Part shown: positions 1 to 20,000 of the stretch, piece after piece
How the letters are laid out: each line of letters starts with the position of its first letter
Position numbering within the stretch: position 1 is the first letter of the stretch
DNA from: Chiloscyllium plagiosum
Lineage: Eukaryota
Reading direction: 5' to 3'
DNA: 20,000 bases
Assembly (NCBI RefSeq): GCF_004010195.1
Contig: NC_057756.1
Coordinates: 9,045,952-9,065,951, forward strand
Program-made: the position numbers and the translations under genes
Notes under the pieces: generated by a model
What the model was told of the DNA's origin: nothing
Database searches by the model: none
Seen by the model: only the letters and a program-made list of their open reading frames with translations

Positions 1-401
1 CCACAGATTGGAAAACTCCAAATGTAATCCCAGCTCCATGTTATTTTACATTCATATTTCATTCTCACCTTGTTTAAACCCTAATATTAATGAAAGGAGA
101 GAGAAAACAGGGAACTACAGACCTGTTAGCCTGTCATCAGTTATAGGTAGAATACTAGAATTTATTAGAAACAATGTGATTACTAGGTGTTTAAAAATTA
201 ACTGTCTGATTGGGCAGAGTGAATCCTTCTTCTATAAAGGGGAAACCACGTTTGATAAACGTGATTGAGTTTTTTTGAGGATGTTTGTAGCAGCGTGAAT
301 AAGATGGACAGTGGACCTGATGTATTTTAATTTTCAGAAGTCTTTTGTTAAAGTGCCACACAGGAGGTTGGTGAACAACATTAAAACGGATGCCGCTGGA
401 G
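1..401 (+). mobile_element. CR1-clade LINE ORF2 (RT) relic, left part of the host element
   Basis: Translates to DWKTPNVIP ... KTGNYRPVSLSSVIGRILE ... VDLMYFNFQKSFVKVPHRRLV, matching CR1 RT motifs (NYRPVSLTS, YLDFxKAFDKVPH), with frameshifts. Confidence 0.9.
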
Positions 402-404
402 ATT

Positions 405-415
405 CAAGATGGCGG
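405..415 (+). promoter_or_regulatory. YY1-type motif at the L1 5' end (internal promoter element)
   Basis: CAAGATGGCGG lies within the first bases of the L1, matching the YY1 consensus and its known position in vertebrate L1 5' UTRs. Confidence 0.6.
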
Positions 416-569
416 CAGTCTGAAAAGTCTGCTGTGTTGGGTTGTGTGCCATACCCCGGGCAGGGTGGGCTCCTACCTCAACCCCCCACCCCCACATTAG
501 CCACCCCTGAGGAAGATTTTTAGTATAAAGCAGGTACAGCACCTAAATTAGGATTTGGAGGCTCTGGAT

Positions 570-1437
570 ATGAAACGAAGACGTCCAAAGGAAGGAGAGC
601 TAGGGGAGTGCAGCAGGCAGAGCACTCCCCTGCTGTGTTGGGTGCACCCGCAGCTGCTGCCTCAACTCCCATGGCAGCGCCTTTAAGTTCAGTGGAGCAG
701 CAGCATCTACTCGGGGAGTTCGCAAAACTCCATGAAAAAATCAAAAAAGCACTGGAGCCGATTACTGCCACACTGACAAAGGATAAGCAAGAGATCCGGG
801 CGTTGGATCGGCACGTGGAAGCAGTCAAGCAAAGGACTGCGGCCTCGGAGACCCCGATGGTGAGCTCTGAGGGGCGGCTCCGAACCTTGGAAGGCCAGGT
901 TCGGGCCTTGCTGGAACAAGTAGACGACCTCGAAAATTGAGGTCGGAGAAAAAATTTACAGGTCGCAGTTCTTCCGGAGAGTGAGGAGGGTGAGAATCTG
1001 GCTGAATTTCTTGAGAGGTGGCTCCTGGATTTGCTGGGGCTGGAGATTGTGTTGGGCTGGTTGAGTGTGGAGTGGGCCCAACGGATCGCGATACACAGGT
1101 CCGGGTCAGATTTGCACCCCACCCCGCCCAGTCCTAGTGCGACTCCAGCACTATAAAGAAAAGCAGTTAATAATAGAAACGTCCAGAAGACTGGGAAGAG
1201 ATCCAAAGGGCTTTGGTATATAAAGGTTCAAGGATAATGATTTTGCAAGACTTTTCTTGGGCCATAATTAAGAAAAGGAAGACTTTTGATGATGTAAAGA
1301 AAAAAATTAAGAGACTTGAATATTCAGTATTCTCTGAGGTACCTGACAATGCTACAGTTTAATTATGGGGGGGGGGGGTCTGTCTACAACTTTGACTTGG
1401 CAGATAAAGCAAAGAATTTTTTAACTCTCTGAAATAA
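570..1437 (+). pseudogene. L1 ORF1p relic (coiled coil + RRM + CTD)
   Basis: Heptad region ...RLRTLEGQVRALLEQVDDLEN*GRRKNLQVAVLPESEEGENLAEFLERWL ... RPVLVRLQHYKEKQLII ... IMILQDFSWAIIKKRKTFDDVKKKLRDLNIQYSLRY. TGA at 938-940 (probable CGA decay) plus frameshifts. The start position is approximate. Confidence 0.88.
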
Positions 1438-1862: not shown

Positions 1863-2020
1863 ATGGCTAGTGATCTGTTCAGATGGTGCACCTGGAAAAT
1901 AAAGGGGAGCCACTCCCCCATTAATAGGAGAAAGGTGCTTTCAAACATAGGAAAGAAAGCGTTGACATTGCGCTGTTGCAAGAGACACATTTCACCAATA
2001 AGGAACATCTGAAGTTACAG
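1863..2020 (+). pseudogene. L1 ORF2 N-terminus (APE-type endonuclease), truncated
   Basis: MASDLFRWCTWKIKGSHSPINRRKVLS/RKESVDIALLQETHFTNKEHLKLQ contains the SWNVxG-like and LQETH motifs. Confidence 0.88.
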
Positions 2021-2376
2021 CATAGAGTCATAGAGATGTACAGCATAGAAACAGATCCCTCGGTCCAACCCGTCCATGCCAACCAGATATCCCAACCCAA
2101 TCTAGGCCCATTTGCCAGCACCTGGCCCATATGCAAGAAAACCCTTCCTATTCATATACCCATCCAGGTGCCTTTTAACTGTTTCAATTGTACCAGCCTC
2201 CAATACTTCCTCTGGCAGCTCATTACATACACGTACCACCCTCTGCATGAAATGTTTGCCCCTTAGGTCCCTTTTATATCTTTCCCCTCTCACCCTGAGC
2301 CTATGCCCTCTAGTTATGGACTCCCCCACCCCAAGGAAAAGACTTTGTCTATTTATCCTATCTGTGCCCCTCATGA
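2021..2376 (-). mobile_element. CR1 3' end fragment inserted in L1 ORF2
   Basis: Minus strand reads TRGHRLRVRGERYKRDLRGKHFMQRVVRVCNELPEEV, then a 3' UTR ending in (CTCTATGA)n. Same family as 18305-19150. Confidence 0.9.
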
Positions 2377-2826
2377 CCAGACAGGTTTCATCAAGAGCTG
2401 CAGCTCCTCCAACAACATCAGATGGTGTTGAATATAGTGCAGATATGTCAGCAGAGATTGATTCTGGGCTGGGTGCTCTCCCTGGATGCAGAAACGGCTT
2501 TTGTTCAGGTGGAATGGTCGTATCTCTTTGCTGTTCGAGATTGTTTTGGTCTGAGAGGGGCCTTTGCCAGATGGGTGGCAGTGTTACGTAGTGATCCCAA
2601 GGTGGCAGTTATCATGAATGGGGTCAAATCGAGCAACTTTAGTGTGGGGAGGGGCAGCCGACAGGGGTGTCCCCTGTCACCGCTGCTGTTTACTTTGGTC
2701 ACTGAACTGTTGGCCAAGGCCATCCGAAAGGACCCTGAAATAGGTGGGAATTGGGGAACACAAAATTACTCTTTATGCGGATATGTCCTTCTGTTTTTGG
2801 CTAATCCGGCAAAGTCTATACCTAGC
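2375..2826 (+). pseudogene. L1 ORF2 reverse transcriptase core relic
   Basis: DQTGFIK ... SLDAETAFVQVEWSYLF ... GRGSRQGCPLSPLLF ... KITLYAD/VLLFL, with frameshifts. Confidence 0.9.
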
Positions 2827-2991
2827 TAAAACAAAAAGTTAACTTCATACATGCACAGAAATTAATGCTTCTGTGTAGCACAATTAAAAAGGATCAGTAA
2901 AGTATGTGATAAAATCCCTTTTGGTATATTTCTGAACATTTGGTAGTATGCGATGAGGTGCTGTGGAGCTATTTAATATTGATAGGTTACT

Positions 2992-3082
2992 AATGGGACT
3001 AGATTGGGTTGGGATATCCGGTCGGCATGGACGGGTTGGACCGAAGGGTCTGTTTCCATGCTGTACATCTCTGTGACTCTAT
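2992..3082 (+). mobile_element. Short CR1 3' tail
   Basis: Near reverse complement of 2021-2105 (GGCATGGACGGGTTGGACCGAAGGGTCTGTTTCCATGCTGTACATCTCTGTGACTCTAT). Confidence 0.88.
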
Positions 3083-3375
3083 CAAGCCATACTGACCTTG
3101 AGTCCTTACGCACCCATTCACCCATACATGACAGCAGTATGCCTGTTTGGTATCTCTTCAGATCTGGGAGTTCCACCCCTTCATATCCTGCGGAAGTTGC
3201 ACCTTGGTAAATTTAATTAGGGGGCACCTCCTGCACCAAATAAATGATCCAAGCCCACTGACAAATCTCCACAGCACCTGTTTGGGTAATGACAACAGGA
3301 GCATCCTCATGGGATATAATAACCAAGGAAGAACATCCATTTTAATCAAGGTTATATGGCCTAGCGTGATATGAG
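3083..3375 (-). pseudogene. Inverted internal segment of L1 ORF2 (post-RT region)
   Basis: Minus strand reads LGHITLIKMDVLPWLLYPMRML...SFIWCRRCPLIKFTKVQLP / ELPDLKRYQ...VWLD, typical of the L1 GRIxLIKMxxLP...GGLxLP region but opposite in orientation to the rest of the L1. Confidence 0.85.
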
Positions 3376-3989
3376 TTCAGCTAGCTGGACGGCAGGTGTT
3401 GAAGACAACAAACACGCTGGTCTCCTGAACTTTTCCAATCGTAACTTCATATCGTCTCCAGCCAGAACATAAGCAAGTGGGTTAATGATGCTGTTCAAAC
3501 TGGCCATGACCCTGGCCACTTGGTAACCCAGATAAATATTTTTGAATGCACTGGCCCTGGAGTTGGAAATACCTCGAGATCAGGTTGGCGTTTCTCAGGA
3601 CATGGTAAGGAGCGAAGCAAAGGGATAACAAGAAAGTGACAATCAGCATGAGCTGAAGGCAGCTATCTGGCAAGCCTTGCTCCACGTTCTTACTGTGGAT
3701 CAGAACATCACAACGGGGCTGTAACAGCCAACAATGATGGGGAAAGGGAGGAAGAAAGTGATCACAGCCATGTACTCCCGCGTCTCCCTTATCGTAACAC
3801 CGTCGTAGCGTTCAGTGCCATTGAGATCGGCCTTGGTTAAATTTGGATCGGCCAAGGTTTGGGCTAGAACCAGCCCTCGGACCAGAACGCTGATGAGCAG
3901 TGAGTGGTGGCGATTCCAGCTGCCCAGCACCTTCATGGGGTGTACTGTGCCCAGGTACCGTTGCACACTGATACAAGTGAGGAATCCAA
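3376..3989 (-). pseudogene. P2RY1-like: P2Y purinoceptor 1-like class A GPCR fragment (TM3 to C-terminal tail), frameshifted
   Basis: Three frames join as GFLTCISVQRYLGTVHPMKVLG...FFLPFPIIVGCY / LIHSKNVEQ...CLQLMLIVTFLLSLCFAPYHVLRNANL / NIYLGYQVARVMASLNSIINPLAYVLAGDD. These are the P2Y TM3 FLTCISxxRY, TM6 CFxPYHxxR and TM7 YQVxRxxASLNSxxNPxxY motifs. Frameshifts near 3703 and 3540; TM1-TM2 absent. The exact subtype is uncertain. Confidence 0.85.
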
Positions 3990-5040
3990 GCCTCGCAGGT
4001 GAGATGTCCCCTCATCAACTTACTGTTGATGGATAAGATGAGATCTGTGGCTGAGCACTGTGAGAGCCCGATTGGCATAAATCAGGTGAAAACATGGAGG
4101 ATAATGTGGCAGGGTGAGGGCAATTTGCTTAAGGCTTCGCTGTTTACCCCATTTGGGGGAGCCCCAGGGGTCAATGGACTCCAGCTTCAGAGCATGGAAG
4201 GGTAAGGGAATCTCCTGACTGGGAGATTTATTCGAGGGAGAGATCTTGATGTCTTTCAACCAATTAAGTCAGAAATATAGAATTCCTAATAGGGACCTTT
4301 TCCGATACTTCCAGGTTAGGGATCATAGACAGAAGAAGACTACACCCTTCGCCCAGCCATACAAGTCAGTTATAGAGAGGAATACTTTGATGTGGGAGCA
4401 TCTCTTGGTTAGTACCATATATTACCTACAGAGAGGGAATGCCTTGGGGGATATGGAGAGACTCCAGGGATCTGGAATCAGGAGTTAGGGGGAAGAAATC
4501 TCATTGGAAGCATGGGAGGATATATAGGGGAAATGTAAAGGAAATTTCTATGTGCAATAAGGCATAAGCGATGCAATTCAAGATCCTTCACAGGGCCCAT
4601 ATGGCGCCAGAGAGGTTAGCAAAGTTTAACAGGACACCCCCCACCCAGATCTTCTCCGAAATGCCCCGAATATAAAATCAGCATAGGCACCCTCACACAT
4701 TGCTTTTGGTCCTGTTACAAGATTTGCAGATACTGGGCTGCCATAGTGAATGAGCTGGAGAAGATCCTGGGGAATTGAAGTTAAGGAGGATCCGGTATCC
4801 CTTCTTTTGGGATTACCGAATCTGTCCTCTCTGGATGAGCACAGGAGAGGTTATTTAACATTCTTACACACTGTGTGGGGAAGAACATTGCAATGAATTG
4901 GATGTTAGAAAATCCTCCAGGTCTTGTGGGGTGACGCACACTTGTGATGGTGCACCTCCCCCATGGTGCAGCATAGAACAGAAATGGCAGCATAGATACA
5001 GACCTATCGGTGGATCTGATTAGGCTTTTATATATAGCTG
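3984..5040 (+). pseudogene. L1 ORF2 C-terminal relic including the Cys/His (zf-RVT-like) region
   Basis: IQASQVRCPLINLLL...GDLFEGEILMSFNQLSQKYRIPNRDLFRYFQVRD...MQFKILHRAHMAPERL...KCPEYKISIGTLTHCFWSCYKICRYW. The end coordinate is approximate. Confidence 0.88.
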
Positions 5041-5421
5041 CGAAGGCCGTATATGGTGGTCCGAGGGCCCCGGGGGTAGGGAAGGGGGGAGACCTAGTAA
5101 ACGTGGGCATAAATAACTGTTGCTCCCATGGATGGGAGCTTCAGTGCAGGTGCGATAAGTGGAGCAATGCAATGTAGTGCAATGTAATGTAATTTAATTT
5201 TATTGGATTGTAATTTAGTTTAATACAATTTCATTTAATTTGAGTTTATTTTAATTTGGGGTGTTAAGTTAAGTAAATATGAGACGATTGTACCTTGAAG
5301 AGTAGTAGGCAGATTATTGTTAACGTTATGAAAATGTGATATTATATCTACTTTTCTGTACTTCTGTACTTTTATAACTTTTCGGTTCTTTTTGTAAAGG
5401 AGTATATATATATATATAAAT

Positions 5422-6300
5422 AAATGCATGACACTAGAGGTAAGATATGAGTAATGTTTGAGGATTGGTTAGTGGGCTGAAAGCAGAGAGATAGAATAAA
5501 TGGTGGGCAGCACAGTGGCACAGTGGTTAGCACTGCTGCCTCACAGTGCCAGAGACCCGGGTTCAATTCTCGCCTCAGGCGACTGTGTGGATTTTGCACT
5601 TTCTTCTCATGTCTGCTTGGGTTTCCTCTGGGTGCTCTGGTTTCCTCCCACAGTCCAAAAATGTGCAGGTGAGGTGAATTGGCCATGCTAAATTTCCCGT
5701 AGTATTAGGTGAAGGGGTAAATGTAGGGGAATGAGTCCGGGTGTATTGCGCTTCGGTGGTCGGTGTGGACTTGTTGGGCCGAAGGGCATGTTTCCACACT
5801 GTAAGTAATCTAATCACAAAAAAATGGATAATTGTCAGGCTGTGTCCGGTGGGGATTAGTAAGGATCAATGTTTAGGCCCCTGCACATCACAATCTACAT
5901 CAATGTTTTGATGTGAGAACAATTGTATTATTTCCCAAGCATGTACATGAGGCAAAACTTGATGGGAATATGAGTTGTGAGCAAGACGTAAAGGCACAGC
6001 AGAGAGATGTAGTCGGTTTGAGTGAGTCGACAAGAGCCTGAGAGATAGAATATAGTGTTGACAAGTATGAAGTTGTCCCCTTTGATAGGAGGGTCAGCAG
6101 TGTAGAATATTTGTAAATTGGTGAGAGATTAGAAAGTGTTGACATCTAAAGGTATGCAGGTGTTCTCGTTAGTGAGTCACTGGAAGCTAACATACTGGTG
6201 CATCAATGGATATGGGAGTACTGCAGGAAAATGGCCATGATCTCAATGAATGGAGGAGCAGTCTGGATGGGCCAAATGGCCTACTCTTGCACCTTTTCAC
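5422..6300 (+). mobile_element. CR1 relic, right part of the host element (interrupted by SINE 5505-5817)
   Basis: Resumes with HDTRGK...EDWLVG*KQRDRING. After the SINE come degenerate QGS/IYIN/ISK..KLxG motifs, then a jump to a CR1-type tail (GATCTCAATGAATGGAGGAGCAG...GGCCTACTC). Confidence 0.8.
5505..5817 (+). mobile_element. HE1-type tRNA-derived SINE (V-SINE), full length
   Basis: Pol III A box TGGCACAGTGG (5516-5526), B box GGTTCAATTCT (5560-5570), V-domain-like GGGTTTCCTCTGGGTGCTCTGGTTTCCTCCCACA, and a CR1-like tail ending in AATCT repeats. Confidence 0.9.
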
Positions 6301-6590
6301 GTCCTTATTTCACAGCTAGAATGGATTTAATATAAAGTTAGTTTTGTGGGATTCAGTGGAAGCCCACAGGACAAGCAAGGGTTAAATTAGACTTGATTAG
6401 ACCAGGGTTGAGTCCTCAGCAGTTACTTTCAGGGCAAGAACAGTGGCCTTGTATTGCTAACTGGGGAAGTGGTCATAGAGGGAATGGGGGATCTTTAAAA
6501 TGATTGAAGCACTTAGGCAAACAGCAAGGGGTAACTGCAGAGATCAGTTTCAAATGCCCTTGCTATAGAAATTGACATTGCTTTGGAATT

Positions 6591-6788
6591 CTGGATTAGT
6601 GGTGCTGGAAGAGCACAGCAGTTCAGGCAGCATCCAAGGAGCAGCGAAATCGATGTTTTGGGCAAAAGCCCTTCTTTGCCCGAAACGTCGATTTCACTGC
6701 TCCTTGGATGCTGCCTGAACTGCTGTGCTCTTCCAGCACCATTAATCCAGAATCTGGTTTCCAGCATCTGCAGTCATTGTTTTTACCT
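6591..6788. mobile_element. Fold-back Penelope-like terminal-repeat insertion (family A) with the hammerhead centre deleted
   Basis: About 75-bp inverted arms (6591-~6665 vs ~6675-6749). Flanking direct repeat CATTGCTTT(G/A)GAATT at 6576-6590 and 6789-6803. Confidence 0.75.
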
Positions 6789-6945: not shown

Positions 6946-7455
6946 AGAGGAAGGGTCCTGGGGAAGGGTTACACCTGAAACGTCAAATTATCCACCTCCT
7001 GGTGCTGCCTGCCTTGCTGTGTTGCCCCAGCCTGCTGCCTGTCCCTCCTGATGCTGCCTGGCTTGCTGTGTTCTCCTAGGGAAGGGTCCTGGGGAAGGGT
7101 TACACCTGAAACGTCAAATTATCCACCTCCTGGTGCTGCCTGCCTTGCTGTGTTGCCCCAGCCTCCTGCCTGTCCCTCCTGATGCTGCCTGGCTTGCTGT
7201 ATTTTTCCAGCCTCCTGCCTGTTCCTCCTGATGCTGCCTGGCTTGCTGTGTTCTCCTAGCCTCCTGCTTGTCCCTCCTGATGCTGCCTGGCTTGCTGCAT
7301 TTTTCCAGCCTCCTGCCTGTCCAACCTGATGCTGCCTGGCTTTCTGTGATCTTCCAGCCTCCTGCCCGTCCCTCCTGGTGCTGCCTGGCTTGCTGTGTTC
7401 TTCCAGCCTCCTGCCTGGGGCTATTTCAGATCCTAGCATTTGCAGTTTTTTTTGT
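6946..7455 (+). repeat. PLE-derived minisatellite (~49-bp units) with a 131-bp higher-order duplication
   Basis: About 8 copies of CCTCCTGATGCTGCCTGGCTTGCTGTGTTCTTCCAGCCTCCTGCCTGTC. The block starting 6949 repeats at 7080. An exact 11-bp direct repeat CTTTTAACATC flanks it (6935-6945, 7456-7466). Confidence 0.85.
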
Positions 7456-8399: not shown

Positions 8400-8960
8400 T
8401 ATGCTGGCCACACCCTGACGTTCTGGCTGGGAATTCATTCTGACGTTACTATCGTTCTTTGTGTGTGAACAGGAAGGCACAGTCTGTTTGGCATCACGTT
8501 TGAGTTCTCAATATCCATTTACTTGCCACCAAATACAATATTACAATGATATAATTTAAGATGGAAATTGGCTGATATAAAGGAAAAATGTAAATTGAAG
8601 AATTATTTAGAAATAACATCGAGTTGGATGTATTCAAAAATATTCACCTTTCGATAAATATTTCAATTGGCGGGAGTTATTATATTGACATCCACACGGT
8701 TTTGATGTATTCTGTTATTAGCCGGGTGGATTTCACAAACACATTTGTTGCTGTTATTTTTACAGATTGGATGTGAGAATTGAGAGGTGTAGATTTTACC
8801 TGAATAGCTCAGCTTCAGGAGAGACAGCTCAGAACTAATCCTACCCTTGTGGATTCTGGTTGTGAAATGTAGACTTTCACTTTACCTCCCTCTTAGTTAA
8901 GGGTTGGAACCAGGATCTAAAAATGTCCACTGTTTGAATTAAATTGAATGATCCAATTAG
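8400..8960 (+). repeat. Diverged duplicate segment, copy 1 (paralogue of ~16140-16720)
   Basis: Collinear shared blocks: CCACAC..CTGG..GGGAAT..ATTC.GA, GGAAAT.GGCTGAT, GAG.TGGATGTAT, ATAAATATTTC, CAG|A.TG..TGTGAGAATTGA.AGGT..AGATTTTACCTGAAT, GTGGATTCTG.TTGTGA, TTGAAT..TCCAATTA. Confidence 0.75.
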
Positions 8961-12890: not shown

Positions 12891-13721
12891 TTAGGGGCAG
12901 TCAGCATAAATTGTCCAAGGGAAATCATGCCTCATGAACTTGATTGAGTTTTTGAGGACTGATGAGGGCAGAGCAGTGGTCATGAACTATATGGACTTCA
13001 GTAAGGCTTTGAACAATGTTCCTGATGGAAGACTGGTTAGCAAGGTTAGATTACGTGGAATAAAGGGAGAACTAGCCAGTTGGTTAAAGCACTGGCTCAT
13101 GGATAGAAAACAGAAGGTGGTGGTGGAGGATTTCTGTGACTGGAGACCTGTGACCAGTGGAGTGCCACAAAGATTGGTCCCGGGTCCACTGTTTTTTGTC
13201 AGTTATATAAATGATTTGGATATGAACATGCGGTATGTGGTTAGTAAGTTTGTAGATGATACCAAAATTGGAGGTGTAGTGGACAGTGAAGGTTACCTAA
13301 GAGTACAATGGCATCTTGATCAGATGAATCAATGGGCTGAGTGGCAGATGGAGTTTAATTTGGACAAATGTGAGGTGCTGCGTTTTGGAAAGGCAAATCA
13401 GGGCAAGACTTGTACACTTAATGGTAAGGTCCTGGGGAGAGTTGCTGAACCAAGAGACCTTGGAGTTCATAGTTCCTTGAAAGTAGAGTCGCAGGTTGAT
13501 AGGATAGTGAAGAAAGTGTTTGGTAGCTTGCCTTTATTGATCAGTGCATATAGTATAGGAGTTGGGAGTTCATGGTGCGGCTGTTCAAGACATTGGTTAG
13601 GCCACTGTTGGGAGTACTGTGTGCAATTCTGGTATGCTGTGAAACTTGAAAGAGTTCAGAAAAGATTCACAAGGATGTTGCCAAGGTTGGAAGATTTGAG
13701 CTGTAAGGAGAGGTTGTACAG
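12891..13721 (+). mobile_element. CR1 ORF2 RT relic
   Basis: ORF 12934-13746 reads YMDFSKALNNVP...VTSGVPQRLVPGPLFFVSYINDLD...SKFVDDTKIGG...WQMEFNLDKCEVLRFG...YCVQFW...LERVQKRFTRM. Confidence 0.92.
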
Positions 13722-14515
13722 GATGGTACGGTGGCTCAGTGCTTAGCACTGTTGCCTCACAGCACCAGGGATCCAGGTTCAAATGACAACACCCTCAGAG
13801 CCCTCCACTATCACCTGATGAAGGAGCATCGCTCCTAAAGCTAGTGTGCTTCCAATGAAACCTGTTGGACTATAACCTGGTGGTGTGTGATTTTTAACTT
13901 TGTACCTTGAAGACATTCTCTTCCTCTCTCTACAAGAATCTCAGTGAGTCTCTCTCTCTCTCACTCACTCACTGCAACCCCCAGGTCATCTCCTTTGCTC
14001 CGAAGTTCTTCAACATGTACTGACCAGCTCAGCACCAGGAGTTGGGAGTTCATGTGCGGCTGTTCAAGACATTGGTTAGGCCACTGTTGGGAGTACTGTG
14101 TGCAATTCTGGTATGCTGTGAAACTTGAAAGAGTTCAGAAAAGATTCACAAGGATGTTGCCAAGACTGGAAGATTTGAGGTGTAGGGAGAGGTTGTACAG
14201 GATGGTACGGTGGCTCAGTGCTTAGCACTGTTGCCTCACAGCACCAGGGATCCAGGTTCAAATGACAACACCCTCAGAGCCCTCCATTATCACCTGATGA
14301 AGGAGCATCGCTCCTAAAGCTAGTGTGCTTCCAATGAAACCTGTTGGACTATAACCTGGTGGTGTGTGATTTTTAACTTTGTACCTTGAAGACATTCTCT
14401 TCCTCTCTCTACAAGAATCTCAGTGAGTCTCTCTCTCTCTCACTCACTCACTGCAACCCCCAGGTCATCTCCTTTGCTCCGAAGTTCTTCAACATGTACT
14501 GACCAGCTCAGCACC
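13557..14515 (+). repeat. Recent tandem duplication, 2 x ~480 bp, of a CR1 + SINE head + PLE chimera
   Basis: 13557-14036 and 14037-14515 are nearly identical, with only a handful of differences. Confidence 0.95.
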
Positions 14516-14750
14516 ACCCTCACTACCTGTCGGACCTGCCAATCTTCCTTCCCACATTTCCGCTCCACCCTCCTCTCCGACCTATCACCTTTACCCCACC
14601 TCCAGTCACCTATTGCACTCTTTGCTACCTTCTCCCCCCCCCCCCCCCCCCCCCTGCCTCATTCCCGATGAAGGGCATTTGCCCGAAACGTCGATTTTCC
14701 TGCTTCTCGGATGCTGCCTGACCTGCTGTGCTTTTCCAGCACCACTGTGA
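14516..14750 (+). mobile_element. PLE family A terminal repeat with pyrimidine-rich leader, poly-C tract and hammerhead variant
   Basis: ATTC-CCGATGA-A-GGGC-ATTT-GCCC-GAAAC-GTC-GATT at 14661-14696, then the family A body. Confidence 0.75.
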
Positions 14751-16139: not shown

Positions 16140-16720
16140 CATTGACCACACTCCGTGGACTGGACGGGAATGAATTCCGAGCGGAATGTGAGGCTGAGAT
16201 TGTCCGACCCGAGTGATTATGTTACCGTTTAGATCTGAACCTGTATTTGGAAGACGCCAAGAATGATCTTTTTGATTATATAACGTACAAAGAAGGAAAT
16301 GGGCTGATTTTAAGCTGAAAGATTTAATTGGAGTGGTATTTGGAAACTATCACTGAGCTGGATGTATCTGAAGAATTCGGTGAGAGACCCTCTCCCCGGG
16401 ATCCCCTGTCTGTGCTTTATCTATAAATATTTCCCTTAATTGGAATCTGTTTGTATGAGCACGGCAAGATTTTTGGCAAGACCTGATCATTGGTCAGGAC
16501 GAATCTGCTGTCCGTTCTGATGCTGTTTTTGTCCAGACTGATTGTGAGAATTGACAGGTTGAGATTTTACCTGAATGAGTCTACTTCAGTGTAGAAAGCT
16601 GAGATTTTCAGAAGTGGATTCTGATTGTGATCTGAACATTTTTACTTTATTCAGTTGAGAGTGGGAAGCAAGCTAAAGAGATACCCAATGATTTATGTGA
16701 AAATTTGAATTCTCCAATTA
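16140..16720 (+). repeat. Diverged duplicate segment, copy 2 (paralogue of ~8400-8960), with exon-like splice signals
   Basis: Same collinear blocks as copy 1. Candidate acceptors end at 16232 and 16536; candidate donors start at 16039 and 16380. Confidence 0.7.
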
Positions 16721-17660: not shown

Positions 17661-18876
17661 GTACTCATTTACAAACATTTATTTTGAATTCTGTTCATCA
17701 AAATATTTCAATTGCAACAAATTTCATTGAATGAAACTTTGCTTTGGAAATTTGGAAAATAAGCAGGTGTTGGTAGGTCATTGAGCTCATCAGTTCACGG
17801 TCCAACTGGATTTCCATTTAAACCTGTCGCTACTTAGGTATTTCTTCATGAACATCCCTCAGAGCAGATATATTGGGAGCGTTAGAGGGTTTCAACAATG
17901 GGGTTTTTTAAAGCAAATGATTAACATGTGTAACTTATTTTAAAAAATGGAACAAGGTAATAAATAAAGGGATAGTCACAGGAATACTTTTAATGTGGAT
18001 TTAGTTTGGTTTTGGAAGGTTTGACGGCTGCTGTCATTCTGGCAGTGGGCCTGACCCTTTAGTTAGTTGAATGAAAGTTTCAAGCCCAGTGTACAGATTG
18101 GGTTGGTGCCAACAGCCTCTCTGAGTCATTCCAACCCCGATTACACATCTCTGGGGGATAGTGCGCAGTTAATTGATGTTTGCAACGCTTGGGACCAGAG
18201 TACTCAGGTTTGCAAGAATAATAGCCAGACTTCAAGGTAAAGTTATAAAGAGAGATTGCACATAAATTATACCTAGAATTTGGAAGGTCAATAAGAGGTG
18301 ACAGAGAGTCATAGAGATGTATAGCATGGAAACAGACCCTTTGGTCCAACTCGTCCACACTGACCAGCTATCCTAACCTAATCTAGTTCCATTTGCCAGC
18401 ACTTGGCTCATATCCCTCAAAACCCTTCCTATTCATATAACCATCCAAGTGCCTTTTAAATGCTGTAATTGTACCAGCCTCCACCACTTCCTCTGGCAGC
18501 TCATTCCATACACGTACCACCCTCTATGTGAAAAAGTTGCCCCTTAAGCCCCTTTTATATATTTCCCCTCTCACCCTAAACATATGCCCTCTAGTTCTGG
18601 ACTCATCCACCTCGGGGAAAAGACCTTGTCTATTTATCCTGTCCATACCCCTCATGATTTTATAAACCTCTAAGGTTACCCCTCAGCCTCCAACGCTCCA
18701 GGGAAAACAGCCCGAGCCTATTCAACCTCTCCCTATAGCTCAAATCCTCCAACCCTGGCAACATCCTTGTAAATCTTTTCTCATCCTATCTACCCTCGAC
18801 TCCACTTTCAAGGAGCTATGAACCTGCACTCCAAGGTCTTTATTTAGCAACACTCCCTAGGACTTTACTATTAAGT

Positions 18877-19095
18877 AGGTAAAAACAATGACTGCAGATG
18901 CTGGAAACCAGATTCTGGATTAATGGTGCTGGAAAAACACAGCAGTTCAGGTGGCATCCGAGGAGCAGTAAAATCGACGTTTTGGGAAAAACACTTCATG
19001 GTTCCTGATGAAGGGCTTTTGCCCGAAACGTCGATTTTCCTGCTCCTCAGATGCTGCCTGAACTGCTGTGCTTTTCCAACACCACTCTTATCATC
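18877..19095. mobile_element. Fold-back PLE family A insertion with back-to-back hammerhead motifs
   Basis: Inverted arms ~18921-18999 / ~19008-19085. TSD-like TACTATTAAGT (18866-18876) / TACCATTCAGT (19096-19106) duplicates host CR1 sequence. Confidence 0.8.
19001..19036 (+). ncRNA. Minimal type-I hammerhead ribozyme motif, intact core
   Basis: CUGAUGA (19005-19011), extra A, stem II GGGC-UUUU-GCCC, GAAAC (19025-19029) and GUC cleavage triplet (19030-19032). Palindromic ACGU stem III; short imperfect stem I GUUC/GAUU. Confidence 0.75.
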
Positions 19096-19614: not shown

Positions 19615-20000
19615 GTTAGGAAGCAGCTCATTCAGCCCAATTAAGTTCACACCAACCTCTTAGAGGATTCCACTCAGACCCATCTGTATACCTATAACCC
19701 TTCACTTTCCATGGCTAATCCACCTCTCACCTGCACATCCTTTGGACACTGTTAAATTTAGAATGGCCAATCCACCATGACCTGCACATTCCTGGGCACT
19801 ATGGTGAATTTAGCATGGGCAATCCACCCTGACCTACACACTCCTGGGGACTATGGTGAATTTAGCATGGCCAATCCACCCTGACCTGCACATTCCTGGG
19901 CACTATGGTGAATTTAGCATGGCCAATCACCCTGACCTGCACATCCCTGAGGACTATGGTGAATTTAGCATGGCCAATCACCCTGACCTGCACATCCCTG
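19615..20000 (-). repeat. HE1-type SINE 3' part expanded into a ~52-bp minisatellite (runs off the window)
   Basis: Units of ACTATGGTGAATTTAGCATGGCCAATCCACCCTGACCTGCACATTCCTGGGC start at 19798, 19850, 19902 and 19953, with older copies upstream. The unit is the reverse complement of SINE segment ~5661-5710. Confidence 0.88.

Follow-up and report, generated by a model that had tools for sequence, protein, structure and literature searches.

A P2Y1-like receptor fragment in an old, rearranged shark L1: possibly the remains of a CR1-tailed retrocopy

The host L1 and its insertion site

The 20-kb window (the whole stretch of DNA that was analyzed) is animal DNA rich in repeats. Its pieces between about 393 and 5420 are supported as a single full-length L1 that was inserted into one CR1 copy and that now also holds a fragment of a P2Y1-like receptor gene (Table 1). 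The ORF2 pieces of the window tile P0159, a full-length relative of 1265 aa, in tblastn searches. P0159 aligned with human L1 ORF2p over residues 7-1246 (E 2e-189) and with R2 at E 9e-22. Judged from these protein alignments, the host element is an L1-clade LINE with a predicted APE endonuclease and reverse transcriptase collinear with L1 ORF2p, an assignment that covers Tx1 and L1 alike within the clade. The ORF1 pieces are decayed, and a Pfam search with them yielded weak coiled-coil matches only, without any ORF1 family. A protein search with piece C gave no match among 13 candidates. We use the name CR1 on the assumption that the tail and a C-terminal motif identify the element; a PDB search for it returned no match.

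The L1 flanks match overlapping stretches of another CR1 copy of the window (Table 1), with an overlap of 18 positions. A degenerate target duplication of about 10 nt (7/10 bases matching, by eye) follows the TT/AAAA motif, and the L1 3' end is short and A-rich. Since the outer flanks are contiguous on one CR1 copy and the duplication lies at the outer ends, the 5' half and the 3' end are parts of the same full-length insertion, and the rearrangement lies within this insertion.

The separate CR1 fragment at 2021-2370 is a clean case of an antisense CR1 insertion with a large one-sided deletion of ORF2 (about 1.5 kb).

Table 1. Features of the rearranged L1 and its flanks, in positions of the window.
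Feature	Position	Strand	Basis
Host CR1-type copy, left flank	230..392	+	Matches 164-305 of another window CR1 copy; TT/AAAA motif, left duplication copy 383-392
L1 5' end and decayed ORF1 (coiled coil, later domains; several stops)	393..1430	+	Translation; 5' end approximate
ORF2 endonuclease start, residues 1-53	1863..2020	+	tblastn with P0159, P0162
Separate CR1 3' fragment, in place of ORF2 residues 54-561 (~1.5 kb)	2021..2370	-	85% identity over 356 nt to copy at 18302; gap size
ORF2 reverse transcriptase piece A, to residue ~717	2372..2826	+	Pfam RVT_1 E 2.6e-10; tblastn
AT-rich foreign segment, 165 nt	2827..2991	+	GC 31.5%; without window match; near single-copy depth; X11 contig 2 bridges 2826
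CR1 3' terminal 91 nt, octamer-like tail	2992..3082	+	86-92% identity to three other window copies; loose ends at 3078-3082
Inverted ORF2 piece B, residues ~803-900	3081..3373	-	tblastn; alignments of L1 contigs reach 3081
P2Y1-like receptor pseudogene fragment, residues ~121-333 of 342	3373..3989	-	Left edge 3373-3379; alignments of parent contigs extend to 3375-3379 and 3987
Resumed ORF2 piece C (from residue ~903), C-terminal region, 3' UTR	3990..5420	+	tblastn; L1-family joints restart at 3990
Right copy of degenerate duplication and continued host CR1	5421..5500	+	Matches 288-374 of reference CR1 copy

The P2Y1-like fragment and its parent gene

The first-pass annotation had read a P2Y1-like receptor on the minus strand, and homology searches bear this out. 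Identities were 150/202 to P0002 and 138/179 to P0003, with the three frame pieces aligned separately. The fragment runs from TM3 to near the C terminus of a 342-aa receptor and carries two frameshifts and an 18-nt (6-codon) deletion. Its closest named relatives are from carpet sharks. In-frame pieces, compared with P0002 and P0003, are 74-77% identical to the elasmobranch 342-aa genes annotated as "P2Y purinoceptor 1(-like)" (XP_072413115.1, XP_060691891.1, XP_043566253.1, XP_048406318.1). Unlike these genes, the fragment is without TM1-2 and the last codons and is frameshifted. Going by this likeness, the elasmobranch genes are the parent lineage of the fragment; the receptor name is the databases' own. 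Neither a poly-A tract nor a duplication is visible by eye around the fragment, in agreement with the earlier reading.

Within each bamboo-shark species, two P2Y1-like paralogues (P0002, P0277, P0275 versus P0281, P0006, P0280) are near-identical between TM2 and the second extracellular loop and different elsewhere, which suggests gene conversion in bamboo sharks. The read depth of the parent gene is also higher over this stretch.

Junctions of the rearranged region

Contigs from 4 of 24 sequencing runs (X2, X3, X11 and X18, from 4 studies) aligned to 2372-4400. Run X2 possibly belongs to the assembly's own study. The other three come from other studies, X11 and X18 from other organisms, and X3 is RNA by guess only. 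The positions and orientations of the junctions described below are shown by the sequence itself.

As previously noted, ORF2 on the plus strand stops near 2823-2826, which corresponds to residue 716-717 of full-length relatives, and an inverted ORF2 piece follows on the minus strand. By tblastn the inverted piece comprises residues 806-900 (3364 to 3081), and its start is probably near 3373. About 250 nt of ORF2 are missing between pieces A and B. The proposal that pieces B and C are adjacent in the L1 family also held, with residue 593 of P0158 falling at 3081 and residue 594 at 3984. L1 contigs link 3081 to 3990/3991 on opposite strands in at least nine contigs from two runs (X2, 3+1; X18, 5). 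Foreign DNA is indeed present after 2826, but its 91-nt CR1 3' end, which meets the inverted piece, had been missed. The CR1 tail and piece B overlap by 2 nt (3081-3082).

A 6-bp microhomology had been suggested at 3984-3989, where the L1 and the receptor were thought to share the same bases. We found instead that L1-family alignments restart at 3990, and that the column read as Q is E in 33/54 full-length relatives and Q in 1, so that this suggestion is not supported. After 3989 an additional G is present in one contig each from organisms B and C, and the in-frame "IQ" therefore probably results from a later loss of 1 base. We infer that the true overlap at the 3989 junction is probably 1-2 bases and that the L1 probably lost about 4-6 bases. 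At the left edge of the fragment (3373-3379), parent contigs reach 3379 or 3375, the closest L1 relatives fix the L1 side, and the orthologue P0278 has three identical residues.

The CR1 3' end and the 165-nt segment

The loose ends of other CR1 copies cluster at 3078-3082, mostly at 3082, in 4/4 runs, indicating that the junction is the natural terminus of the CR1 family. A LINE 3' end with a terminal octamer-like repeat is present at the 3' junction of the putative insertion. The tail resembles the octamer of bird CR1 described in PMC2612034, a paper that also notes that tail and target match. The chance that a random breakpoint falls at such a tail is about 0.2% (3 other ends per 20 kb, 16-nt window), or about 1% over four junctions. 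A hairpin in the CR1 tail was no more stable than shuffled sequences (z -0.94).

The 165-nt segment upstream of the tail (2827-2991) has no match elsewhere in the window. It is a candidate for the P2Y 3' end or 3' UTR. On the predicted strand, 2891-2923 aligned with the missing last P2Y codons with 7 mismatches in 33, a score equalled by 46/2000 shuffles and 3/170 real windows in a post hoc comparison with two columns added. The first, unanchored codon-match test of the segment gave about 12% (118/1000). When the test was anchored at 2828, 83/150 shuffles scored as high, and on this count we rejected the idea that the segment opens with the last P2Y codons at a hexamer common to both inversion joints; the hexamer occurs 7 times in the window (both strands). 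Two parent contigs have overhangs of 70 and 86 nt, for which the alignments listed gave no placement on the segment.

Base 2889 is covered by two contigs in X2 and X18, some having C for A. Since this may reflect a donor of the foreign segment present as a second copy, but equally alleles or contigs that overlap, we drew no conclusion from it.

Read support and copy number

The junction between piece B and the P2Y fragment was bridged in 4/4 runs, by contig 21 of X2 (1 difference in 716 nt), contig 26 of X3 (2/871), contig 5 of X11 (31/752) and contig 13 of X18 (25/492). Listed contigs bridged the junction between P2Y and piece C in X2, X3 and X11, and bridging is implied in X18. Three organisms thus have contigs that bridge a P2Y junction, and in two of them both junctions are bridged. 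Among the listed contigs, the 2826 junction was bridged in X11 only, none bridged 2992 or 3082, and none covered the whole stretch. The tail junctions are therefore taken from this assembly alone.

The depth of the P2Y bin equals the sum of one chimeric and one parent contig (14.5 = 5.62 + 8.85 in X2, 13.4 = 7.03 + 6.36 in X18). In the three large runs, the L1 bins had depths between several hundred and a few thousand, which is 60-100 times deeper. These figures bear on two ideas raised in the first-pass annotation, namely that the chimera could be a misassembly or a member of a gene-transducing L1 subfamily. The bridging contigs in all four runs and three organisms, with the left junction covered in four and the right in three, refute a misassembly of the P2Y junctions. 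A subfamily does not fit a single chimeric contig per run, among those listed, at the depth of the parent. Depth is not a copy number and the contig evidence extends to the listed contigs, which leaves some room for these ideas; we nevertheless consider both of them exceedingly improbable. A single copy of the chimera is supported, short of proof, given that depth is not a copy number and that contigs may hide rare copies.

Origin of the rearrangement

The earlier proposal that a segment of a cellular gene was captured inside this L1 is supported. Plain twin priming by this L1 is unlikely in the form proposed, because the duplication encloses the whole L1. Capture by a reverse transcriptase is plausible, and the junction beside the inverted piece points to CR1.

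Two observations bear on how this may have happened. A single break in the L1 has the natural CR1 3' terminus on one side and the 5'-cut end of P2Y on the other. If one inversion is undone, the P2Y fragment, a gap, the 165-nt segment and the CR1 tail lie on the same strand in the order of an RNA, so that four junctions are accounted for by two events. The reading that we favor, though tentatively, is that a CR1-tailed P2Y retrocopy was inserted antisense into the L1 and was later split by an inversion. It is possible, if short of probable, that the CR1 machinery reverse-transcribed a P2Y1-like coding mRNA and inserted it as a CR1-tailed chimera.

The sequence of events would be as follows. A CR1 copy would first have received the full-length L1, a step supported by the flanks. 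CR1 reverse transcriptase would then have primed at an ORF2 break, located between codon 900 and about codon 903, using a 2-nt match to the tail. It would have copied 91 nt of a CR1 3' end and then a P2Y1-like RNA, either through a template switch or from a CR1-tailed RNA. Copying would have ended in TM3 and left one antisense, 5'-truncated retrocopy, with about 4-6 target bases lost. Later, a single inversion may have flipped piece B together with the 3' part of the retrocopy, with one break in the L1 (about 250 nt lost) and a second one in the retrocopy, close to where the coding region ends. The predicted product has the order piece A, foreign 165 nt, CR1 tail, inverted B, inverted P2Y, piece C. 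Afterwards, the locus would have decayed and passed to at least three species without spreading. That a single RNA was copied, and that the events took this order, is our reconstruction. Further support comes from the low chance of a random breakpoint at a CR1 tail, from the post hoc codon match at 2891-2923 and from the second CR1 insertion in the same L1, which is also antisense, with its tail adjoining the L1 and a one-sided deletion, and there is a precedent in the 5'-truncated U6 pieces upstream of short L2 ends described for platypus in PMC4476161. Against this reading, CR1 is described as recognizing its own RNA, as rarely moving mRNAs and as limited in its range of RNAs (PMC5470649; SINE-LINE tail pairs in PMC3747384). 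The younger look of the tail (see below), the negative anchored codon test, the unplaced overhangs and the support of the tail junctions by this assembly alone also weigh against it.

A quite different and rather improbable route is a single complex double-strand-break repair in the resident L1, by microhomology-mediated end joining or serial template switching on copied DNA or cDNA. Piece B would have been flipped and the joints patched with P2Y, the 165-nt segment and CR1 cDNA, in which case P2Y may not have come through RNA. Indeed, neither poly-A nor duplication nor any known intron loss marks the fragment as a copy of RNA, the end of A and the start of B are only about 250 nt apart in ORF2, and the overlaps at the junctions are short. 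Yet this route requires two or three donors, and the position of the CR1 terminus exactly at the break is unexplained unless CR1 priming is added. The mismatch in age discussed below is unfavorable to it as well.

The rearrangement also has to be compared with twin priming. In that case the L1 would have been primed at 3082, the second primer would have switched from L1 RNA to P2Y mRNA, and the product would then have recombined with the resident L1. As in twin-primed, 5'-inverted L1 copies (PMC2912911, PMC11702581), the inverted piece ends next to the point of the consensus at which the sense 3' piece starts (3081 to 3990), few bases are lost, and the outer (5') joint has a 2-nt overlap. Neighboring internal breakpoints together with these features fit the signatures given in PMC11702581, and a form with a second RNA is described in PMC4476161. 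An inversion of DNA gives the same adjacency, however. Unlike in twin-primed L1 copies, the sense 5' half is still upstream, the duplication is found at the far ends of the complete element, so that it encloses the whole L1, and the outer joint is a CR1 terminus, the presence of which would be a coincidence (about 0.2%, see above). What follows the L1 3' end is the host CR1, resumed from 392, and not the flank of 3082, there is no TT/AAAA motif at 3082, and an extra recombination step is needed. We regard this route as very unlikely.

Age of the parts

Between the chimera and the orthologous locus, 4.1% (organism B) and 5.1% (organism C) of the positions differ, compared with 10-13% between the chimera and the parent contigs. 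The frameshift at 3705 is common to the chimeric contigs of all three organisms and absent from the parent contigs. Twelve sites set three bamboo-shark orthologues apart from the zebra/whale shark pair; of these, the fragment agrees with the trio at 5, with the pair at 5 and with neither at 2, some of these sites being less certain as they lie near the deletion. This split places the capture on the stem between the bamboo-shark trio and the zebra/whale shark pair.

The fragment deviates in 29/156 otherwise invariant columns, which implies a nucleotide change of about 8.7%. The L1 pieces differ from their paralogues by 14.5-17.3% pairwise, or about 8% per branch, as estimated from the 21 long paralogue pieces listed and bounded by an 80% cut-off. 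The CR1 tail has 2 private differences in 91 nt, and 5 against the majority of three other copies. Compared with an expectation of 8%, the Poisson probability for the tail is 0.024 with 2 changes, 0.068 with 3 and 0.27 with 5. The tail therefore looks younger than the P2Y fragment, and the comparison leans against an equal age. In X2, 16,387 of 74,318 aligned records were at least 95% alike, most of them probably from the CR1 tail repeat.

The younger-looking tail, the mixed outcome of the codon tests and the unplaced overhangs keep alive an alternative with two separate events, which we consider unlikely though worth weighing. The L1 reverse transcriptase would have switched from L1 RNA to P2Y mRNA and back at about the time when the L1 was inserted, leaving P2Y in sense orientation before B. 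A later CR1 insertion at the B-C site would have been repaired with an inversion of P2Y and B, and the repair would also have deleted sequence across the old left junction and gained the 165-nt segment as filler. This agrees with the common sense of P2Y and B and, besides the age of the tail, with the similar ages of the L1 and the P2Y fragment, the former subject to the bounds given above. For human cells, PMC11702581 reports insertions accompanied by inversions at their flanks and by templated filler. The alternative nevertheless requires a double switch, an inversion coupled to an insertion, a deletion across the old junction and an unrelated filler.

Comparison with known systems and significance

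If the CR1-tailed retrocopy is the correct reading, its nearest relatives are the chimeric retrocopies of stringent LINEs, for which Doucet et al. (2015, PMC4476161) describe U6-L2 in platypus, U6-L2/RTE in anole and one uncertain U6-CR1 case in turkey. Common to these and, on that reading, to the shark locus are a 5'-truncated piece of host RNA upstream of a short LINE 3' end, priming by a simple-repeat tail and little or no target duplication (PMC4476161). In contrast to them, the shark cargo would be a protein-coding mRNA, an inversion has split the insert, and the connection of the cargo with the tail is reconstructed. Law and Burns (2026, PMC13174262) describe 17 human mRNA-LINE-1 5' chimeras, in which the mRNA is 5' of a mostly near-full-length L1, in sense orientation in 15/17, and often ends at a splice donor. 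The shark locus resembles these in that a piece of a protein-coding mRNA would be joined to L1 in a fixed, old insertion; it differs in that the shark fragment is internal, mid-exon and inverted (PMC13174262).

A literature search, with most subscription papers outside its scope, found no report of this locus or of any CR1-tailed mRNA retrocopy. The sole locus from a metagenome scan (L001, 301 pattern matches) was dropped as an unrelated chance match.

The locus appears to be a one-off fossil in an old rearranged L1 common to three related sharks, and not a gene-carrying L1 family. The receptor piece is dead and has no evident function; it is old, apparently single-copy, and lies in a twice-invaded L1. 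As a single dead locus it is of use for marking a lineage, and it documents the scrambling of host sequence by nested LINEs. If the 165-nt segment is the P2Y 3' end, the locus would be a case of a stringent LINE (CR1) copying a coding mRNA, a capacity treated as limited in the review PMC5470649. It would then offer a natural example, open to dating, of one way in which gene retrocopies arise in CR1-rich genomes, and retrocopies with CR1 tails in place of poly-A would be worth screening for; the tail is very abundant in sharks.

Other features of the window

The window contains several further repeats. A 481-nt tandem duplication at 13557-14516 has 98.8% identity and covers several repeats; it is either very young or an assembly artefact. 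Tandem arrays are present at 6949-7417 (49-nt units, plus a 131-nt duplication) and at 19710-20000 (51-52-nt units). Members of a short repeat family form back-to-back inverted pairs at 6588-6753 and 18924-19084, which are near-palindromes (92% and 84%). Finally, a diverged 139-nt duplicate (73%) at 8746-8884 and 16518-16649 looks exon-like by eye and may mark two tandem copies of the 5' region of a host gene.
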